From: Dictyostelium discoideum
Taxonomy: Eukaryota
Direction: 5' to 3'
Assembly: GCA_000004695.1 (NCBI GenBank)
Contig: CM000150.2
Location: forward strand, 1,504,001-1,568,000
DNA length: 64,000 bases
The notes under the pieces are model-generated. The model searched no databases. It worked only from the letters and a program-made list of their open reading frames with translations, and was not told the origin of the DNA. Shown here piece after piece: positions 2,380 to 10,206 of this stretch; the stretch's first letter is position 1, and the number at the start of each line of letters is the position of its first letter. Both the position numbers and the translations under genes were made by a program.

Positions 2380-3950
2380 ATGTTTTGGTTTTTTTTTTTT
2401 TTTTTTTTTTTTTTATTTTTATTATGGAATGTAAAAAAATTGTTGGGAATCGAACCTTTTTTTTTTTTTTTTGATATAAATAAACTATTGTAGTATACAA
2501 TTAGTATGTTATTTTTATTTATTTATTTTAGGTTTTTTAATTTTTGTGAATTTAAAATGGTATGTTATTTTAGATTAGGTAATTAATAATTAATTGGTGG
2601 TGTAATTGTTGGAATTGGTTCATTAGTGTTTATGCTCCATTCTTTTTTAAATTTTTTGATTGTTTCGGACCATTGGGTTTCTTTTTGAGTTTTTGTGAGG
2701 TTGTTTTTAATTGAGTATTGGTTAAAGTTTGATAATGTTCTTGAATATTCCAATCTTTTTAGCTTGTGCCATTTTGATTTTAATATATCATAATCTAATG
2801 TTGTGTTGTTTATTTGGTTGTTCCAATTATCAATTGATTGAGTTATATTGATGTCAAATAATGATTTGCATAACCATATCCATATTTGGTGAATAACTAA
2901 TGAGATTATGTTCCAATATGCATGTGTTTTGACTAGATCAAGATTTGTGTTTATATAATTCCAGTTGAACCTGTATTTTTTATATTGTGCATTTTTTGCA
3001 AAATGAAAATTAATATTGATAGTTGGATCTGGTTTAAATGCTTTGTTGTTTATTTGTGGTTTATAAATGAGTGTGTATAATTTTGTTGTTTGGTTTTTTG
3101 TTAGTGACCAGTTTTTGTTTCCATTGCAATTTTTATATATAAAATATTTTAATTTGTCGTGGTTTATGAAGTTGATTGTGTGCTGACAATTGAAAAACAA
3201 ATGACCATAGGGGTCATTATTCATTTCATTTTTGCAAATGGGGCCAACTTTGTTGTGTAGATGATTAATTTGCATTGTATCACGGCCTTTTGGATCTTTT
3301 AATTTTTGAATTTTGACAAATAGTTGGTGGTATGTGTATTTCCATAATAGTTGTATTGATTGTTGGTGCGAAGTAAGAAGTAGATCTGAATATTTCTTGC
3401 CACCTCCGCCCATATTAAATTTAATATGGACACCACATAGTCTTTTGATTTGCATTGGTGATTGTTGAGTATTGTAGAGTAGATTTCTTTGAGTGTTGGT
3501 GGTAGTGAAATATTATTTGTGATTAATGTTTGAGAGGTTTGGTTTTTTATTAATATTGGTTGTAGGGTTTGAACTTTATCTTTTAGATGTCCAATTTGAG
3601 TTGCATAGTTTTCCCATTCTTTTTTAATTTTTATAAGGTATGGAGAAGAGATTGATTTGTTGATTATTTGATCCATCCAACTTATCATGTATATTGAATT
3701 GTTTGCAGATTTATGCATTTGTAAAAATCTGTTGTATATCCAAATCTTTTGAGCAACTTGTCGTAATTGTATATTCCAAAATACCCCAACCACCTTCTTT
3801 TAATGGTTTTAATGATCTATCATAACACATCAAAGGTATTTTTTCACGTGAATGGATGGTTAATGTGTTGTTTTCAATGGAATTGGTATTGAGAGAATTC
3901 ATAAACCATGAGATTAATTTATTAATTTGAATTTCTTCATCTTTTGTAAA
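2380..3950 (-). mobile_element. Degenerate, 5'-truncated non-LTR (TRE-like) retrotransposon remnant. Three overlapping minus-strand ORFs in different frames (2583-3455, 3299-3793, 3711-3902) mark a frameshifted ORF2 C-terminus.
   Basis: A coding-like minus-strand stretch of about 1.3 kb is broken by frameshifts. It contains a Cys/His motif, PICKNEMNNDPYGHLFFNCQH (H-x4-C), reminiscent of non-LTR ORF2 C-terminal domains. A plus-strand poly-T run at ~2388-2414 reads as an oligo(A) tail on the minus strand. The remnant lies about 100-140 bp downstream of the minus-strand tRNA-Trp gene at 4042-4128, which is where TRE3-type elements target. Confidence 0.4.
2445..2456 (-). promoter_or_regulatory. 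Orphan external B box (ggttcgattccc on minus) with no tRNA gene beside it.
   Basis: The sequence ttgttgggaatcgaacc is identical to the ex-B boxes at 3998-4009 and 7307-7318, and it is flanked by T runs. No tRNA-like sequence occupies the expected position at 2480-2570. Confidence 0.4.
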
Positions 3951-3997
3951 TTCTTCAAGTTAGAAATCAAAATAATGTTAAATTGAATAAATTTGTT

Positions 3998-4009
3998 GGG
4001 AATCGAACC
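3998..4009 (-). promoter_or_regulatory. External B box (GGTTCGATTCCC) 33 nt downstream of the tRNA-Trp 3' end.
   Basis: Dictyostelium tRNA genes typically carry an extra B box about 30-40 bp downstream. A pol III T-run terminator (TGTCATTTTTTT on minus) sits between the tRNA and this box. Confidence 0.6.
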
Positions 4010-4041
4010 TTTGATTTTAGAAAGTCTCTTAAAAAAATGAC

Positions 4042-4128
4042 AGACCCCTCAGGGAGTTGAACCCTGGACCAACTGCTAACTTCTAACGTTTTGGAGACAA
4101 TTACAATAAACCACTATGCTAAGGAGTC
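4042..4128 (-). tRNA. tRNA-Trp (anticodon CCA), 87 nt including a ~14-nt intron directly 3' of the anticodon loop.
   Basis: The minus strand reads GACTCCTTAGCATAGTGGTTTATTGTAATTGTCTCCAAAAC..GCAGTTGGTCCAGGGTTCAACTCCCTGAGGGGTCT. The acceptor stem GACTCCT pairs with AGGGGTC through one G-U pair. The T arm is CAGGG-TTCAACT-CCCTG with B box GGTTCAACTCC. The anticodon loop is CTCCAAA (CCA). The internal A box is TAGCATAGTGG. A T-run terminator and an ex-B box lie downstream. Confidence 0.7.
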
Positions 4129-4129
4129 T

Positions 4130-4385
4130 TTGAAAATTCACTGGATGAAACACTTTGTTAACACCTCATTTTTTTCGGTGAAACACTATGTTATGGAGTC
4201 ATTAATTTTTATGTCAATAACATGCTGGAATTTAGCTGGCGAAAATTAAAATTGAAAACCAATTGGATGACTCACTTTCCTAAGCCCTCATTTTTTTGGG
4301 TGAAACACTATGTTAAGAAGTCATTACTTTTTATGTCAATAATATGCTGAAATTAAGCTGGCAAATATTAATATTATACCTAGTT
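4130..4385. repeat. Degenerate tandem repeat of about 125 bp (about 2.3 units) derived from the tRNA-Trp 5' half and its 5' flank.
   Basis: The unit ggtgaaacactatgtta(t/a)g(g/a)agtcatta..tttttatgtcaataacatgctggaatttagctggcgaaaattaaaattgaaaaccaattggatgactcactttcctaagccctcattttttt is repeated. It contains several degenerate copies of the tRNA 5' motif cacTxTGcTAAGGAGTC. Confidence 0.6.
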
Positions 4386-4774
4386 ATAATAATTACAAAA
4401 AACAAATAGTTTTTTTTTTTAAAAAAAGAGGTATAAAAAAATTATATGGATTAATAATAATAAATTTTTTTGAATAACAATTAAATATTATTATTTTGGC
4501 GAATGCACATCACTTATTGAATTTCTTTTTTTATTTTTTATTTTTTTATATATACCCCATTGTAAAGCTTAATAAAGTAAAAAATATTAAATCCATTTAT
4601 CTAATTAATAGATGAAGTAAAAAAAAATTATATATCGTATAGTGATTTTTTAGTGTTCTATCTATACTAATAAATATTAATAATGAATATTAAAAATAAT
4701 TAAAATTAAATCATTGTTAAAAAAAAAAAAAAAATGAATTTAATCGTTCTGTTTTTTTTTTTTTAATTTTTATT

Positions 4775-5041
4775 TTCTCCAGCTAAATTCCAACATGTTA
4801 ATAGCTTAAAAAAATGAATGTATTAATTCTGTTTTTAGCTGGCAAAAATTAAAATTGAAAACCAACTGGATGGCACACTTTGCTAATGTCTCATTTTTTT
4901 AATTAGTTATCAACCTGAAAATAAACATAGTGGTTTATTGTATTTGTCTCCAAAAATGAGGGCTTAACAAAGTGTGCCATCCAGTTGGTTTTCAATTTTA
5001 ATTTTCGACAGCTAAAAACAGAATTAATACATTCATTTTTA
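4775..5041. repeat. Large imperfect inverted repeat (hairpin) built from the same repeat family. Arms are about 4807-4897 and 4951-5040. The ~55 bp spacer carries a plus-oriented partial tRNA-Trp copy (catagtggtttattgtatttgtctccaaaa).
   Basis: The reverse complement of 4951-5040 is nearly identical to 4807-4897 (aaaaatgaatgtattaattctgtttttagctggcaaaaattaaaattgaaaaccaactggatggcacactttgctaatgtctcattttt). Confidence 0.65.
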
Positions 5042-5431
5042 ATATTAATATTTTAAAATAATTTATTTAAACAAAGAATTAATAAGAGAAACAAAGAACA
5101 AAATAACAAAAAACAAAAATCTACAAAGAGTCAATTGATCAAAATAAGAGAAATGAGATTATTAATATTTTTTATAGTATTAAAATTAAATATATATAAA
5201 AAATAAAAAAAAAATTAACACTTTTTTTTCAAAATATCACAAATATATTTTTTTTTTTTTATGACTTCACACAAAAAAAAAGTAATTTTAAAAAAAAAGA
5301 ATTTTTTTCTTTTTTTTTTTTTTTTTTTTATTTTCTTCTAATTAATCCTCATATAAAATTAACACAAAAAAAAAAAACAACGACAACTTCACCTTTTTTT
5401 TATTTTATTATTCATCTAAAAAGATAAAAGA

Positions 5432-6298
5432 ATGTCAAAATTAGTCTCACAGTGGTTAAATGAATCATTCAAAGTTATCAGAAAGAGTCAAGTAATAAAA
5501 TATAAAGTACACTTAAAAAATGTAGACGATAGCATTAAAGAATATTTTGAAAAACCAGACACATTAATAAGAGTCAAAAAAGGTATGGTATTATTAACAG
5601 AAAATCTTGACTCAGTAAAATTTGCATCCTCTTGCTTTGACGAAGTGGAAGTGGAAAATTCAACAAAGATTAGTTTCCCATTAAAATTGAAACAACTGGA
5701 ATCTTTAGATTATTTGGATGCGATGCCTGAAGAACTCTCATCAAAGGTAGTCGAACGTCGAACATTTCCAAAAGAGATATCTTTCACCTTTGTTAATCTT
5801 GATGAGAAATGGGACACACATCAATTAACAAAGACTATAGAAAATCTTGATTTTCCCAAAAAAAAACTCCTACAAACCTATTACGCTCAGCATGAGCAAG
5901 AGCAAGAGCAAGAGCAAGAGCAAGAGCAAGAGCAAGAGCAAGAGCAAGAGCAAGAGCAAGAGCAACAGCAACAATTTATCCCCAGAACTAATAACTATGA
6001 AGATTTCAAAATATTACAAAAAAAACTAAGTAGACAGAAAATACAACAACAAATGATCAAAAAGGAAATCAAAAGAAGCTTCAAAAAAAACAAAAACAAA
6101 AATAACAACAACGACCACAAAAAGAACAAATTCGACAACAACGACCACAACAAGAACAAATTCGACAACAAATTCGACAACAACAAGATGAAAAAGAGTG
6201 ACAAGACGATAAAGAGGAAAAACAACACAAAAACAACACCAACCACAAGAACAACACAAACTACAAGAACAACACCAACAAAAAAAACACAAGAATAA
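5432..6298 (+). CDS. Hypothetical protein, 288 aa, with an (EQ)11 repeat and a lysine/asparagine-rich C-terminal tail.
   Basis: ATG-initiated intact ORF. The N-terminal 150 aa is non-repetitive (MSKLVSQWLNESFKVIRKSQVIKYKVHLKNVDD..) and the (GAGCAA)11 run at 5894-5962 is in frame. I recognise no domain. Confidence 0.5.
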   Translation: MSKLVSQWLNESFKVIRKSQVIKYKVHLKNVDDSIKEYFEKPDTLIRVKKGMVLLTENLDSVKFASSCFDEVEVENSTKISFPLKLKQLESLDYLDAMPEELSSKVVERRTFPKEISFTFVNLDEKWDTHQLTKTIENLDFPKKKLLQTYYAQHEQEQEQEQEQEQEQEQEQEQEQEQQQQFIPRTNNYEDFKILQKKLSRQKIQQQMIKKEIKRSFKKNKNKNNNNDHKKNKFDNNDHNKNKFDNKFDNNKMKKSDKTIKRKNNTKTTPTTRTTQTTRTTPTKKTQE

Positions 6299-7306
6299 CA
6301 AGAAAAACAAGAAAAGTAGCATGAACAACAACCACAGCAACATGTAAATTAAAAAATAGCAAAACAAAATATTAGTAACTTTTTATAATATTAAAATGAA
6401 TAAAATCTGAATGTATGGTTTGAAATCTTATTTATATAAACTCTCAAGTAAATTTTTTAAAAAAAAAATACCAGAAAGGCAGAGGAAAACGAATAAAACT
6501 TTGGAGGTTAGGTTTTTTTTTTTTAAATATAAAATCAGAAGTAATTGTGATGGTAAAGATAATAAATCATTTGTTCAAAATATTCACATTATTAAGTTTT
6601 ATTTGATCTATTAAAACTATTTATCATTAATATTTTATTAAGCAATAATTATAAAAAAACAATCTTTTTTGATTTAAATATAGGTGAGAATTCTCATTTT
6701 ATCAAGTGGTTTTATATATGTTTTTTTATAAGATTAAATAATTAAATAATAAAATTATGAAATTAATTTTTTTTTTTTTTTTTTTTTTCAGCACATTGAC
6801 CCACGAAGGCTGAGTTTGAACAACAGAGGTCTTTTAAATTTTAATCTTGTTGGATTTTTTTTTTTTTTTAATATTGAATAATAAGTGTTTATCCATTAAA
6901 GCAAATAAACAATAACTAATAGTTTTAGTTATTCATTTTCTTTAATTTTAATATTCAAATAAGGAATTTTAATAGTGTAGTAACTAATTTTTATTATTAT
7001 TATTATTAATATTGTTATCTTTTTTTAAAATATCGAGTTTTTAGATATGTTAAATATTAAATAAATTAATTTAATAAATCAAATAATATGATTATAATTG
7101 ATTAGATGAAATGGTATGATTTGGAAGAATCAGTTGATTCTTGCAAGTTAATTATCTTAATAATAGTATTTGTTTAAGGAAATCGTTTGGGTCTTTAAAA
7201 TTGTTCTGATCTTTTGAAAGAGTTAATTTACATGTTTTTTTTTTTTTTTTTATATATAAATATATATTCTGGAAATCAAATTAATGTTAAATTGAATAAA
7301 TTTGTT

Positions 7307-7318
7307 GGGAATCGAACC
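7307..7318 (-). promoter_or_regulatory. External B box for the second tRNA-Trp copy.
   Basis: Same sequence and the same 33-nt spacing as at 3998-4009. Confidence 0.6.
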
Positions 7319-7350
7319 TTTGATTTTAGAAAGTTTCTTAAAAAAATGAC

Positions 7351-7437
7351 AGACCCCTCAGGGAGTTGAACCCTGGACCAACTGCTAACTTCTAACGTTT
7401 TGGAGACAATTACAATAAACCACTATGCTAAGGAGTC
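7351..7437 (-). tRNA. tRNA-Trp (CCA) with intron, second copy. It is identical to 4042-4128 and lies inside a duplicated ~210 bp block (3963-4175 equals 7271-7483).
   Basis: The sequence gacccctcagggagttgaaccctggaccaactgctaacttctaacgttttggagacaattacaataaaccactatgctaaggagtc is identical to copy 1, and the flanks, including the ex-B box and the upstream cactttgctaagg(c/a)cctc motif, are conserved. Confidence 0.7.
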
Positions 7438-7924
7438 CTTGAAAAATCAATTGGATGAAACACTTTGCTAAGGCCTCAATTTTATTGGAAAACCCAAATT
7501 AATCAGAAAATTTCCAGATTTTTAACTTTTTAAAGTAAAATAAAAAATAGAAAGAAAATAAGATGAAAATTACAAACAACACCACAAATATTAAGCAACA
7601 CAAATGCCTACAAAAAATAAGCGAAATTGTGGATAAAACTCAAATAAAAAAAACAATTCAAATATGTCATCAACATCAATCACGAACCAGACGATAAAAT
7701 AAAAAAAGATTTAGAAAAAGTTTGGACAAAAAAGATGTTTAATCAAAAGTAATAATACAATTCAAAATTTGAAACAAAAAAAAAAAAAAAAAAAAAAAAA
7801 AAGTTAACTAACCCCTCTTTTAGAGACCCTGTAAAAAACTACAAATAAAATGAGATCAAGCAGGAGAAGCAACTAATAATTGCGTTATCCAATTCAAAAA
7901 AAAAAAAAAAAAAAAAGCCTCATT

Positions 7925-8090
7925 TTTTTGGAAACAAATACAATTACAATAAACCACTATGCTAAGGAGTCCTTGAAAACCAACTGGATGACACACTTTG
8001 CCAAGGTCTCATTTTTTGGGGTGAAACACTGTGCCAAGGAGTCATTACTTTTTATGTCAATAACATGCTGGAATCTAGCTGGCGAAAAAT
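7925..8090. repeat. Further copies (about 1.5 units) of the tRNA-Trp-derived ~125 bp repeat.
   Basis: The sequence caattacaataaaccactatgctaaggagtccttgaaaaccaactggatgacacactttgccaaggtctcattttttggggtgaaacactgtgccaaggagtcattactttttatgtcaataacatgctggaatctagctggcgaaaaat matches the 4130-4385 units. Confidence 0.6.
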
Positions 8091-8121
8091 AAAAAATAAA
8101 AAAAAACAGAATGATTACTTT

Positions 8122-8158
<37 letters not shown>

Positions 8159-8408
8159 CAAGGATTTAATTTTAATTATTTTTAATATTTATTAGTATAG
8201 ATAGAATACTAAAAAAATAATCAATATGATACAGAATTTTTTTTATTTTTTTGATGTCAAATTTGACGATGTTTTAATCACAAAAAATATCTTTTGAAAA
8301 AAAAAAAAAAAATCTTTTTTTTTTTTTTATTTTTTACTCACCAATTTTCTTTTTTTTTTATTTATAAATAATTTTTATAAACAAAAAAAAAAAAAAAAAG
8401 AAAAAGAA

Positions 8409-10206
8409 ATGAAATTTTCTTTATCTTTAATTTTTATAATAATTTCTGCAATTGTGAATGTAAACTCTCAAACAACTTGCAGATTTGCACCAACCTATAC
8501 ATTAAACGATATTATTAACTCTAATAATCAATCATTCATCAATGATGTATTATTTTGGGAAGGAAATGTATGTATGGAAATCAAAAAATTAATAAAAAAT
8601 AACAAAAAATATTAATAATTAATTTTTAAAATAAAAAAAAAAAAAAAGTTTCATTCAAATCAAGTTGGAGTAAATTATGAATGTGGATATACATATGATG
8701 GACATGAATTAAATTATATTACTGGAGAATTGGATTCACCATTACATGAATTCAGTGCACCATCAAAAGAATCAATTCATTTAGGAATGTTAGCATTGGC
8801 ATTGAATGAATGGGTTAATGAAGAACCGGAAAATTATAAAGCAATTAATTTTTTTCATCAAAACATAACTCGTACCACCACAGAACAAAACGAGATTCCA
8901 TATAGTGGTAATAGTAATTTTGACAATGCAATTACAATACTCTATAGAAAGATCAATACCTATCATCAATTTAATCAACGTTTTCCAGGATTTGGTGGAT
9001 TTCATCCATGGGTATCGGTTAATGATTCCGGTATTTTCTTATTAGATGGTTGGACCAACCAAGTACCAGGTTTGGATAATGGTGAAATGATTTGGGGACT
9101 TTATGCAGTATACAACCTATTAACCACTCAACCAACATTTATTAACAACTACCCCACACTCGGACCATTGTATGAAAAATATTTCCAAATATTAATTAAT
9201 AATGCAATGACAATATTCTATCAACCAAGTGGCTATATTAGTGCAGTTGTAGAAATCAATGATATCTATTCAACACCAACACCAAGCAATTATTTAAATC
9301 CAAGTGGATTATTAAATGATCCATATGAGGGTGAATTGTTGGTAGTGTTTATGGACTTGTTTTGCCAATGGCCATCTGAAGAGGCACGTGACCAAATTTG
9401 GATTAATAAAAGAGCATTATTACAATCAGTTGAATTCAATACCCATAGCAATACAAATATAACAGTTCAACGTGGTTGGTGGTTTTCATCACATGAACAA
9501 TGGAAATATTTAATGTTACCTTATCAAGAGATTGAAATTAATCAACGTGTTTTCCGTAATGGTGAAAGGGCAAGAACTTGGTTCTCCTCAATTAATAATT
9601 ATCCTGGTTTATTTGCTTCTGTAACAAATGTAACTGAAATCAATCAAAATAATGGCTACGTTAGTGCAACTGGTATTAGTGAAATTGCTTTTCAACAACA
9701 AGTTACCAATGCATTAATAACACCATATGCTTCATTTCCATTATTTTTAATTCATGATCAACCATCATTAGGTCTTTCTTGGTATTATACAATGTTAAAT
9801 GGTCCTTCAATGCAAAATCCATTTGGTAGTACTGAATCTGTTAATATAATTGGTACAGGTAAATAATTAATTAATTTATTACATATTTAAATCAAAAAAA
9901 TTCTTTTTTTTTTTTATTTTACTAATTTTATTTTTATTTTTATTTTTAGAAATTGCATCTGTAATTACTTGGGATTCAAAGATTACAACAGTTTTATCAA
10001 TGTTGGGTGGTATTTCAAATATTAATTTACAATTTTTAAAATCAAATGGATTATTTGAACGTTTTTCAACTGTAATTGATAGAGAATGGTCATTGGCTTT
10101 CCCAAATTTAAATGGTGAAAATTTACCATTTATGTATCCGTCACGAGATGTTACAATTCCAAAAATTTTAAATGATTTTACAAATTGTACATTAAAAAAG
10201 ATTTAA
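8409..10206 (+). CDS. Secreted protein of about 540 aa, unknown function, in 3 exons: 8409-8567, 8649-9858, 9950-10206.
   Basis: Exon 1 encodes a signal peptide (MKFSLSLIFIIISAIVNVNSQ). A GTATGT donor at 8568 and an AG at 8647-8648 keep frame into the 378-aa ORF. A second donor, gtaaat at 9859 (phase 1), with an acceptor tttag at 9945-9949, joins the ORF ending in TLKKI at 10206. I recognise no domain (..GFGGFHPWVSVNDSGIFLLDGWTNQVPGLDNGEMIWGLYAVYNLL..). Confidence 0.55.

Follow-up and report, generated by a model that had tools for sequence, protein, structure and literature searches.

Upstream of a tRNA-Trp gene of Dictyostelium discoideum lies an array of repeats that resemble the beginning of the gene itself, together with a long inverted repeat. 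This raises the question of whether such DNA belongs to a mobile tRNA-derived family, is the end of a known transposon, specifies a hairpin RNA, or was copied from the gene next to which it stands. We analysed a stretch of 64,000 nucleotides from an AX4-like D. discoideum, here called the window, and compared it with the orthologous loci from eight other assemblies (fetched loci of about 21 kb each). The array probably results from lineage-specific, strain-polymorphic partial duplications, at the DNA level, of the head of the tRNA-Trp gene at a locus hit by retrotransposons (probability roughly 0.7), each copy consisting of the immediate 5' flank plus the first ~24 to ~40 bases of the gene. 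An earlier note had proposed, from the window's sequence, either a SINE-like family or a pol III locus subject to recurrent abortive duplication or templated repair; its interpretation as a whole is partly supported.

Two tRNA-Trp genes and the arrays upstream of them

The window contains two tRNA-Trp(CCA) genes on the minus strand, so that "upstream" corresponds to higher plus-strand coordinates. Gene #1 (4042–4128), which has a 13-nt intron and is intact in the window, was found by ARAGORN and by Rfam (RF00005, 44.8 bits). Gene #2 (7351–7437), found by both, is identical to it, and the interval 7272–7483 around gene #2 shares 95% identity with 3963–4173. A pattern search located an extra B box, GGTTCGATTCC, on the minus strand 33 bp downstream of gene #1 (3999–4009); the motif recurs behind gene #2 (7308–7318) and in a third copy at 2446–2456. 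The B-box pattern GGTTCRANNCC has five matches in the 64-kb window (at 2446, 3999, 4053, 7308 and 7362; 0.19 expected), and all five belong to the two tRNA-Trp genes and the extra B boxes. A protein record look-up for positions 2583–3455 returned no entry. At the orthologous locus of the outgroups a tRNA-Trp gene is flanked by VPS13-like and GH162 genes.

The units of ~125 bp that the earlier note had described upstream of gene #1 are real: Tandem Repeats Finder (TRF) reports a 122-bp unit in 1.9 copies with an 85% match at 4142–4375, and by BLAST positions 4130–4253 are 84% identical to 4252–4375. Each 122-bp unit probably carries two decayed tRNA heads, the second of them inside a segment of ~48 bp that we call U. 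All parts of this array were assigned to the minus strand. Read in the tRNA sense, U1 (4129–4176) comprises an A-run, next a decayed head psi' (GAGGTGTTAACAAAGTGTTTCATCC, 4143–4167) and last 14 nt of native 5' flank. It is followed by psi copy b (GACTCCATAACATAGTGTTTCACC, 4177–4200), which matches tRNA positions 1–24 at 19/25, and by a first copy of a segment V (4201–4250) with 94% identity to 8043–8094. The series then repeats as U2 (4251–4298, psi' at 4265–4289), psi copy c (GACTTCTTAACATAGTGTTTCACC, 4299–4322) and a second copy of V, with which the TRF tandem repeat ends (4323–4375). A 25-nt core of U has six matches inside 4130–8000 and zero elsewhere in the 64 kb, against 0.01 expected, and is thus repeated above chance. 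Agreement of individual psi' copies with the tRNA head is low (14–18 of 25 positions), the background maximum being 17/25 in 120 kb, and their assignment leans on register and on clearer orthologous copies.

The copies stop at about tRNA position 24 or 38 and lack the 3' half of the gene. They hold an A-box-like TAGCATAGTG, and the GGTTCRANNCC search of the 64-kb window found no B box in or beside the psi and psi' copies or the two longer heads, f and d, described below. Transcription of the copies as tRNA-like genes is not expected, since they have neither a B box nor a 3' half. An A-run follows every copy, for which an alternative reading is an oligo(A) tail. On the plus strand the units are traversed by an open frame of 52–70 aa, and a protein search with 58 aa of it gave zero matches. 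We also considered a derivation of the 3' part of U from the 3' half of the tRNA, on the basis of a shared 8-mer (CAGTTGGT, shuffle p ~0.023) present in 3 of 6 copies, and set it aside.

Related units recur upstream of gene #2, as had been noted, at 7438–7488 and 7918–8094. This second array is split by a retroelement. U5 (7438–7488, minus strand; psi' at 7453–7477) adjoins the gene, and its last 16 nt (7473–7488) are one copy of a target-site duplication (TSD) whose second copy lies at 7918–7932 (GCCTCATTTTTTTGG versus GCCTCAATTTTATTGG at 7473–7488; 15–16 bp). Between the two copies is a 5'-truncated TRE5-A-type 3' end of 429 bp with B and C modules (7489–7917, plus strand), identified by the rules for size, position and orientation (PMC3159450, PMC5391098). 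TRE5-A inserts ~47 bp (range 37–211) upstream of tRNA genes with its 5' end toward the 5' end of the gene (PMC5391098), and its 3' end comprises a B-module of 290 bp and a C-module of 134–137 bp (PMC3159450). The insert conforms to these rules: it begins 51 bp upstream of gene #2 with its 5' end toward the gene and its poly(A) end distal, its size accommodates B and C, it has an internal A-run (7772–7802) and an A21 tail (7896–7916), and it is flanked by the TSD. A protein search for relatives of TRE5-A ORF1, for which the query was a 44-aa ORF in the putative B-module, gave zero matches. The tRNA-head units differ from this insert in that they are not TRE5-A sequence and have the opposite orientation.

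Beyond the insert, all on the minus strand, lies a long tRNA head, f (7931–7971), whose positions 1–32 are identical to the gene and are followed by a 6-nt duplication and an A-to-T change common to fragment d of the palindrome; f terminates in the A-run of the anticodon loop. Next come U6 (7972–8019, psi' at 7986–8010), psi copy g (GACTCCTTGGCACAGTGTTTCACC, 8020–8043) and the segments V (8044–8094) and X (8095–8130), a T-run and W (8154–8244). In all D. discoideum strains, L003 and L005 included (we number the orthologous loci with the prefix L), V-X-W is native single-copy intergenic DNA upstream of the GH162 gene. The order U6-f-U5-gene #2 is exactly the one that a single tandem duplication of –50 to +38 would leave, which supports duplication. 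Heads f and d have both the derived GTATTTGT change and the junction with U (CCAAAAA..ATGAGG) in common, which argues that one was copied from the other and not separately from the gene.

These features bear on whether the units could be the terminus of a known transposon, such as the LTR and primer-binding site of DGLT-A, a TRE5 A-module, or the terminal repeat of DDT or thug. Both DGLT-A and TRE5 are found upstream of tRNA genes (PMC5633606), and downstream of each U on the plus strand lies tRNA-complementary sequence, in the manner of a primer-binding site. [quoted passage not shown] The units are also unlike the TRE5-A B and C modules present at the locus, and the adjoining V-X-W is single-copy in all D. 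discoideum strains. Thug-S, which we considered as the identity of the hairpin, was rejected: the literature describes it as a DNA transposon with an intron (PMC4894637), which likewise counts against a thug terminus for the units. We regard a known terminus as highly improbable. The earlier note had named this outcome as the one that would explain the units without a tRNA-derived origin; in a comparison that covered the TRE5-A B and C modules and the DGLT-A site, the unit is no TRE5-A B or C module and lacks the DGLT-A site.

Distribution among strains and species

A single tRNA-Trp gene, unaccompanied by any partial copy in its orientation, is present in each of D. firmibasis, D. citrinum, D. 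dimigraforme and D. cf. discoideum ACTFIZ. Partial copies are present in all four D. discoideum assemblies and in D. cf. discoideum ACTFIY, always upstream of the gene and always in its orientation, the sole exception being the inverted copy in the palindrome of the AX4-like lineage. Unit length and copy number vary by strain (35 bp x 6.7, 72–122 bp, or ~550 bp). L003 has one repeat of period 35 in 6.7 copies and one of period 36 in 2.8 copies (TRF), L005 has three 35-nt units, and L006 has five copies, three of them at ~550-bp spacing. Head-to-tail copy number is therefore strain-variable, as in a polymorphic tandem repeat or minisatellite. It is the absence of the units from the outgroups and their variability at the orthologous loci that settle how they are to be interpreted.

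A clean 35-bp minisatellite is still present in wild strains. The unit of L003 and L005 reads GACTyCTTAGCATAGTGTTTCACCT followed by AAAAAAA(G)AT, and the 5' flank of the gene in both, aaaaaaagatGACTCC, is the same as the spacer of the unit, which indicates that flank and gene head were copied together, as DNA. In every D. discoideum assembly both loci have a psi-like copy that begins 38–40 nt upstream of the gene start, and this copy is thus older than the duplication into two genes. The copies in L006 reach about position 45–47, inside the intron, so that neither spliced tRNA nor a cleaved 5' exon can have been their template. As with minisatellites, tandem duplications and truncated tRNA pseudogenes elsewhere, the units stand head to tail, vary in number and length among strains, show graded divergence (U copies are 75–91% alike) and include no promoter-complete gene; they are distinguished by being built from the start of an active tRNA gene and its 5' flank and by being stacked on the live gene. 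Such gene-head repeats on a live tRNA gene are undescribed in Dictyostelium in the papers searched, and a search for literature on repetitive DNA at Dictyostelium tRNA-Trp genes yielded nothing relevant among them.

The same comparison bears on a dispersed, SINE-like family. The units resemble tRNA-derived SINEs in their tRNA origin and their A-box-like motif, they are multi-copy and adjoin pol III genes, and the orthologous site of D. firmibasis does hold a SINE-like element: an A-tailed element of 176 bp (L002, 9520–9695) flanked by TSDs that starts with 16 nt of tRNA-Trp and lies 63 bp upstream of the gene. That element was examined as kin of the D. discoideum units and rejected, as only the 16-nt piece is common to both and Rfam does not recognise it as a tRNA. 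Unlike SINEs, the units have no B box within or nearby, no LINE-related tail and no TSDs, comprise the 5' part of the tRNA only, and abut head to tail in tandem with their source gene, always upstream of it. They have 0 copies outside 4130–8100 in the 64 kb, 0 outside the VPS13–GH162 interval in the nine ~21-kb loci, and are missing from the four outgroup assemblies, so that in the available sequence they are not dispersed. An exact-pattern scan of JGI metagenome contigs and GTDB genomes with the U core was empty, as expected for a eukaryotic sequence. In the sequence covered, a SINE-like family is thus not supported, and we consider it very unlikely.

Retroelements have entered the locus repeatedly. 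Independent TRE5-A-type insertions with differing 5' truncations are present in the window, L001, L003, L005 and L006, and a TRE3-like element lies downstream at the locus. In the sister assembly L001 gene #1 is split by a 701-bp TRE5-A 3' fragment whose 5' junction falls at tRNA position 36/37, and the TRE5-A-type copies of L001 and L006 run upstream into an ORF that ends just before the A-run. Such repeated insertion, including inside gene #1 of L001, demonstrates that the locus is unstable.

We also considered an RNA-mediated origin, in which fragments or 5' halves of pre-tRNA-Trp were reverse-transcribed by TRE5-A or other non-LTR machinery, inserted ~50 bp upstream and later duplicated. 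The homology of f and d ends at CTCCAAAA with more A's following, the long copies have their start in the TRE5-A target window (PMC5391098), ~50 bp upstream of where the next tRNA begins, TRE5-A fragments occur in every array, and the L001 junction at 36/37 and the A-tailed D. firmibasis element with its tRNA-Trp start could be read in the same way. The copies, however, are oriented like the gene with the A-run proximal to it, opposite to the strict orientation of TRE5-A (PMC5391098). The short units contain the 5' flank of the gene, those of L006 run into the intron and beyond, f and d have a derived mutation in common, and the units lack TSDs. We judge an origin through RNA unlikely.

A palindrome of the AX4-like lineage

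The inverted repeat that had been reported as near-perfect was confirmed, with its arms adjusted to 4810–4898 and 4952–5040 (89 nt, 93% complementary, spacer of 53 nt). It is preceded on the plus strand by an inverted copy (4620–4817) of the W-X-V block found upstream of gene #2 at 8042–8244 (BLAST, 73.5% over 219 nt). The left arm (4810–4898, plus strand) consists of the reverse complement of X, then the 3' part of V, then U3; the right arm (4952–5040, minus strand) consists of the reverse complements of U4 and of the 3' part of V, followed by X. The spacer (4899–4951, plus strand) joins a V-like fragment to fragment d, the plus-oriented partial tRNA-Trp that had been recognised there. Fragment d (4926–4955 by BLAST) is the reverse complement of 4089–4118 over 30 nt at 97%, spans the D-arm to the anticodon loop and extends into the right arm. 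The spacer junction of L001 reads ...ctggaatTTAGCatagtgg..., in which TTAGC is common to V and the tRNA. The arms are 93% alike and the U copies 75–91%, which suggests copies of graded ages.

The palindrome is found only in the window and L001 and is absent from L003, L005, L006 and L009. The presence of the same array and palindrome in two independent assemblies excludes an assembly artefact. Two near-identical assemblies differ by 14 substitutions, nine of which cluster at the palindrome centre, the opposite of what constraint would produce. Inverted duplication by fold-back or template switching at short microhomologies is known to make palindromes. The present one resembles such products in its long near-perfect arms, asymmetric centre, 5-nt TTAGC junction, lineage specificity and centre-clustered changes, and differs in that its 53-nt spacer exceeds that of typical cruciform-prone palindromes.

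Folding is predicted to be very stable, at –83 kcal/mol as DNA (z = –17.3, 0/200 shuffles as good) and –118 kcal/mol as RNA (z = –17.6), and D. discoideum makes hairpin miRNAs, some of them repeat-derived (PMC6161686). On this basis we weighed a functional locus for a hairpin or miRNA-like RNA, or a regulated cruciform, as a source of small RNAs. Palindromes prone to cruciform extrusion have only a very short spacer between their long, near-perfect arms; the 53 nt found here are unfavourable to extrusion from duplex DNA, and hairpin formation would plausibly be confined to single-stranded DNA or RNA. Further evidence against a function comes from the restriction of the palindrome to the AX4-like lineage, from the T-runs in its arms, from the substitutions at its centre, and from Rfam, where the sole match (mir-5014, RF04241) scores 33.3 bits, far below its gathering score of 101. 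A full-text search of 8 million papers with the arm, U and tRNA-head sequences gave zero matches, so that the arms appear in no searched paper text. A small-RNA or cruciform function accordingly seems most improbable.

Probable order of events and significance

The other proposal of the earlier note, abortive duplication or templated repair recurring at a pol III locus, fits well with the strain-variable units, the inclusion of the gene's own 5' flank, the shared derived substitution and the TTAGC junction. From these features we infer both an order of events and a molecular mechanism. In the D. discoideum lineage, copies would have accumulated upstream of a single tRNA-Trp gene, and local duplication of the gene with its flanks would then have given two genes 3.3 kb apart, the copies being carried along. 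Tandem duplications of ~35 bp (flank plus positions 1–24) may first have produced the psi and psi' copies. A tandem duplication of ~90 bp, from about –50 to +38 and joined in A-runs (the AAAA of the anticodon loop and the A-run at about –50), may then have given rise to the long copy f. A 122-bp tandem duplication of U-psi-V would account for 4130–4375. In the AX4-like lineage only, a block of X, the 3' part of V, U and a long tRNA head would have been inverted and joined at the TTAGC microhomology to form the palindrome. Finally, TRE5-A and a TRE3-like retrotransposon would have landed in the array and its surroundings more than once. Slippage, unequal exchange and template switching at a pol III gene most likely left the array behind as a scar without function. 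Such a gene is a target of retrotransposons, and tRNA genes are in general replication-pause sites.

Two observations sit less easily with this reading. The endpoints of the copies recur at ~24 and at 38–47 (anticodon loop, intron), and the retroelement junction of L001 lies at 36/37; this recurrence hints at a mechanism more specific than random slippage. The long copies also start ~50 bp upstream of the next gene start, the TRE5-A target position. It is conceivable, though unlikely, that an active pol III gene of D. discoideum is unstable in a specific, recurrent way and that the head arrays record this, with breakpoints at ~+24 (the end of the A box) and at ~+37 to +47. Such instability might arise from transcription-replication conflict or from repair of nicks made by the TRE5-A endonuclease. 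It would leave a "gene-head minisatellite" that is polymorphic among strains, together with a fragile palindrome, mutating at its centre, in the laboratory lineage; the TRE5-A copy that splits gene #1 of L001 at 36/37 would be the same hotspot acting.

On the preferred reading of local DNA duplication, the locus represents no new class of element. Tandem repeats at tRNA genes are also found in another amoebozoan, Entamoeba, where tRNA genes lie amid fast-evolving tandem repeats (PMC2652664). There, entire functional tRNA genes are repeated in arrays across the genome, whereas here gene heads only are repeated, at one locus. Across the D. discoideum clade the locus shows units of four different sizes, a single palindrome, no fewer than four insertions of TRE5-A type, a single TRE3-like insertion and one tRNA gene knocked out, the last in a near-isogenic assembly. 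Users of the chromosome 1 reference should be aware of 9 differences at the palindrome centre between two assemblies that are nearly identical elsewhere. The locus is relevant to target choice by TRE5-A, since decayed A-box copies and extra B boxes sit in the target window. If the reading is true, the tRNA-Trp locus became a nest of rearrangements, and the array, with no function of its own, would be a clean, datable case of a tRNA gene shedding partial copies in a compact AT-rich genome.

tRNA-Trp genes and retroelements at the locus

ARAGORN and Rfam identify two intron-containing tRNA-Trp(CCA) genes of identical sequence in the window (22.7% G+C), both on the minus strand: gene #1 at 4042-4128 and gene #2 at 7351-7437. 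The gene is present twice together with its flanks (3963-4173 versus 7272-7483, 95% match), and the region singled out in the earlier note lies 5' of gene #1. A GH162-family gene at 8408-9866 falls in a 90%-identity cluster shared with D. discoideum AX4 DDB_G0268130, which marks the window as AX4-like. Between the tRNA-Trp genes lies a 288-aa low-complexity gene (5432-6298, plus strand) without a Pfam domain. It was found only in assemblies with the duplicated tRNA gene (the sister assembly L001, wild D. discoideum L003 and L005, and L006, D. cf. discoideum ACTFIY), and not between the VPS13-like and GH162 genes of D. firmibasis, D. citrinum and D. dimigraforme.

Retroelements sit on both sides of these genes. 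Upstream of gene #2, a 429-bp insert (7489-7917) begins at a distance of 51 bp; its 5' end is toward the gene, and it has an A21 end and a 15-16-bp target-site duplication on both sides. This fits the published rules for TRE5-A, which inserts ~47 bp upstream of tRNA genes in strict orientation and whose 3' end combines a B-module of 290 bp with a C-module of 134-137 bp (PMC5391098, PMC3159450). Downstream of gene #1 is a 5'-truncated non-LTR retrotransposon (2440-3962, minus strand) that is missing from strain L003. Its ORFs (2583-3793, minus strand) carry a Cys/His motif and have, by tblastx, a weak and collinear resemblance to an APE and RVT_1 element in L009, and its poly(A), the T-run at 2460-2472, adjoins a second copy of an extra B box (2446-2456). 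By position the element is TRE3-like. L003 also has a transposon-like, AT-rich insertion of ~1.1 kb with long terminal inverted repeats (L003 5404-6530), absent from the window, with tRNA-head repeats on one side and the remains of a TRE5-A C-module on the other.

L001 (GCA_054883475.1) matches the window at 100% over the left 4.1 kb and at 99.6% over the right 12.2 kb. Its gene #1 is split, with positions 17-36 replaced by a 701-bp TRE5-A-type 3' fragment (L001 7981-8681, corresponding to window 4093-4112). This 5'-truncated fragment comprises an ORF end, an A-run and then the B and C modules; it is associated with a 20-bp target deletion, has no target-site duplication and does not occupy the canonical -47 position. 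The extra B box at 3999-4009, ~85-115 bp downstream of the insertion point, may have directed the insertion into gene #1.

Tandem units and copies of the tRNA head

The tandem units described in the earlier note upstream of gene #1 were recovered by TRF as a 122-bp unit repeated 1.9 times (4142-4375, 85% match). A conserved 25-nt core of the ~48-nt segment U occurs six times, all within 4130-8000 and with no further occurrence in the 64-kb window (expected 0.01 for 64 kb searched); pairwise identity among the six U copies is 75-91%. Each U consists of an A-run, a weaker head copy (psi') and native 5' flank. In tRNA sense, with the retroelement removed, the order upstream of gene #2 is the segment V, the short head copy psi(g), A-run, psi', a 14-nt tail, the long head copy f, A-run, psi', a 15-nt tail and gene #2. 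The psi copies (GACTCCTTrrCAyAGTGTTTCACC) correspond to tRNA positions 1-24. Single psi' copies (consensus GAGGCCTTAGCAAAGTGTkTCATCC) agree with the tRNA head at no more than 14-18 of 25 positions, against a background maximum of 17/25; we assign them because of their register within the repeats and because L003 and L005 have an unmistakable head copy at this position, with its start 38-40 nt before the gene. The two long copies, f (7931-7971) and d (within the palindrome spacer), follow the gene sequence through to the A-run of the anticodon loop, where they end. They have in common a derived A-to-T change (GTATTTGT) and an identical junction with U.

The units could be read as a SINE-like, tRNA-derived family, one of the two origins proposed earlier. 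This is not supported: the head copies contain no B box, the units carry no target-site duplications, and no dispersal was seen, as judged on the 64-kb window and the orthologous loci. DGLT-A as a source of the units is excluded by its primer-binding site. ORFs of 42-70 aa cross the units in a conserved plus-strand frame (4091-4249, 4222-4350 and 7880-8092), and three head copies yield the peptide motifs NHYAKES, THFAKVS and KHCAKES; the ORFs match no database proteins, and the conserved frame is probably due to chance. The 8-mer CAGTTGGT of the U tail (window 4854-4870, 4980-4996 and 7972-7988), present in only 3 of the 6 U copies, is shared with the tRNA 3' half (shuffling p ~0.023).

Comparison across assemblies

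The interpretation of the units is decided by comparative evidence, for which the orthologous locus was taken from eight other assemblies via protein look-ups. Between the VPS13-like and GH162 genes, just one tRNA-Trp gene is present in D. firmibasis, D. citrinum, D. dimigraforme and D. cf. discoideum ACTFIZ, with no same-orientation partial head copies at the locus. Two tRNA-Trp genes with partial heads are found in all four D. discoideum assemblies and in ACTFIY. Every partial head lies upstream of a gene and is gene-oriented, except for the inverted copy in the AX4-like palindrome. L003 contains minisatellites of 35 nt x 6.7 (9342-9570) and 36 nt x 2.8 (5297-5403), and L005 roughly three 35-nt units (9505-9606). 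In these strains each unit joins ~24 nt from the start of tRNA-Trp to 10 nt of its 5' flank, the spacer AAAAAAA(G)AT being the 5' flank of the gene itself. L006 has five longer head copies that reach position ~45-47, into the intron (2143-2358 and 7303-8506), three of them spaced at ~550 bp and two at 118 bp; the direct repeat TATCACCCAA brackets one head copy.

A separate 176-bp element lies on the plus strand 63 bp upstream of the orthologous gene in D. firmibasis (L002 9520-9695), with its 5' end toward the gene. Its first 16 nt are identical to tRNA-Trp positions 6-21, and it contains GGTTCAAGTCT, which resembles a B box, along with an internal A12 and a terminal A13. Direct repeats of 17-18 nt, ACTCAAGTTGG(G)TGGGGG, flank the element. 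It has the look of a SINE-like retroposon; no SINE is described in the two dictyostelid genome/transposon papers checked for that word.

Origin of the units and the palindrome

We consider it likely (probability about 0.7) that the units are DNA-level tandem duplications of the flank and gene head, which originated in the D. discoideum lineage and are still strain-variable. This reading rests on the flank sequence, and in L006 intron sequence, held by the copies, on the derived mutations common among them, on their lack of B boxes and target-site duplications, and on their confinement to the upstream side of the gene. Of the two earlier proposals, the one that invoked duplication, or templated repair, at a pol III locus is supported. 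The order U6-f-U5-gene #2 is the product expected of one tandem duplication, which would have spanned about -50 to +38 with its junction in two A-runs. Origin by retro-copying is attractive given the A-runs at the copies and the -50 position, but it is contradicted by their orientation, by their flank and intron content, by the dependence of TRE5-A on its C-module and by the reported absence of processed pseudogenes (PMC3159450). Two things keep tandem duplication from a higher rating: its endpoints recur (about +24, and +37 to +47), which hints at a mechanism more specific than random slippage, and the evidence on dispersal covers the window and the orthologous loci.

The inverted repeat noted earlier is borne out, with 89-nt arms at 4810-4898 and 4952-5040 (93% complementary) around a 53-nt spacer, as is the plus-oriented tRNA piece in that spacer (30 nt of tRNA-Trp, 97%). 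Among the assemblies compared the palindrome occurs only in the window and L001, and it would be a later inverted duplication, in the AX4-like lineage, of a block made of the intergenic segment X, the 3' part of V, U and the long head. The window and L001 differ by 14 substitutions over 12.2 kb; nine fall at the centre of the palindrome (4887-4967), and in 9/9 the L001 base is that of the paralogous V or tRNA sequences; in the L001 version the inverted junction sits within TTAGC, common to both sides. Either mutations have clustered at the palindrome centre, or one of the assemblies contains base-calling errors. The fold is strong (z = -17) both as DNA and as RNA; a functional role as hairpin RNA lacks support. 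The feature is real, a rearrangement scar that is probably functionless and of modest interest.
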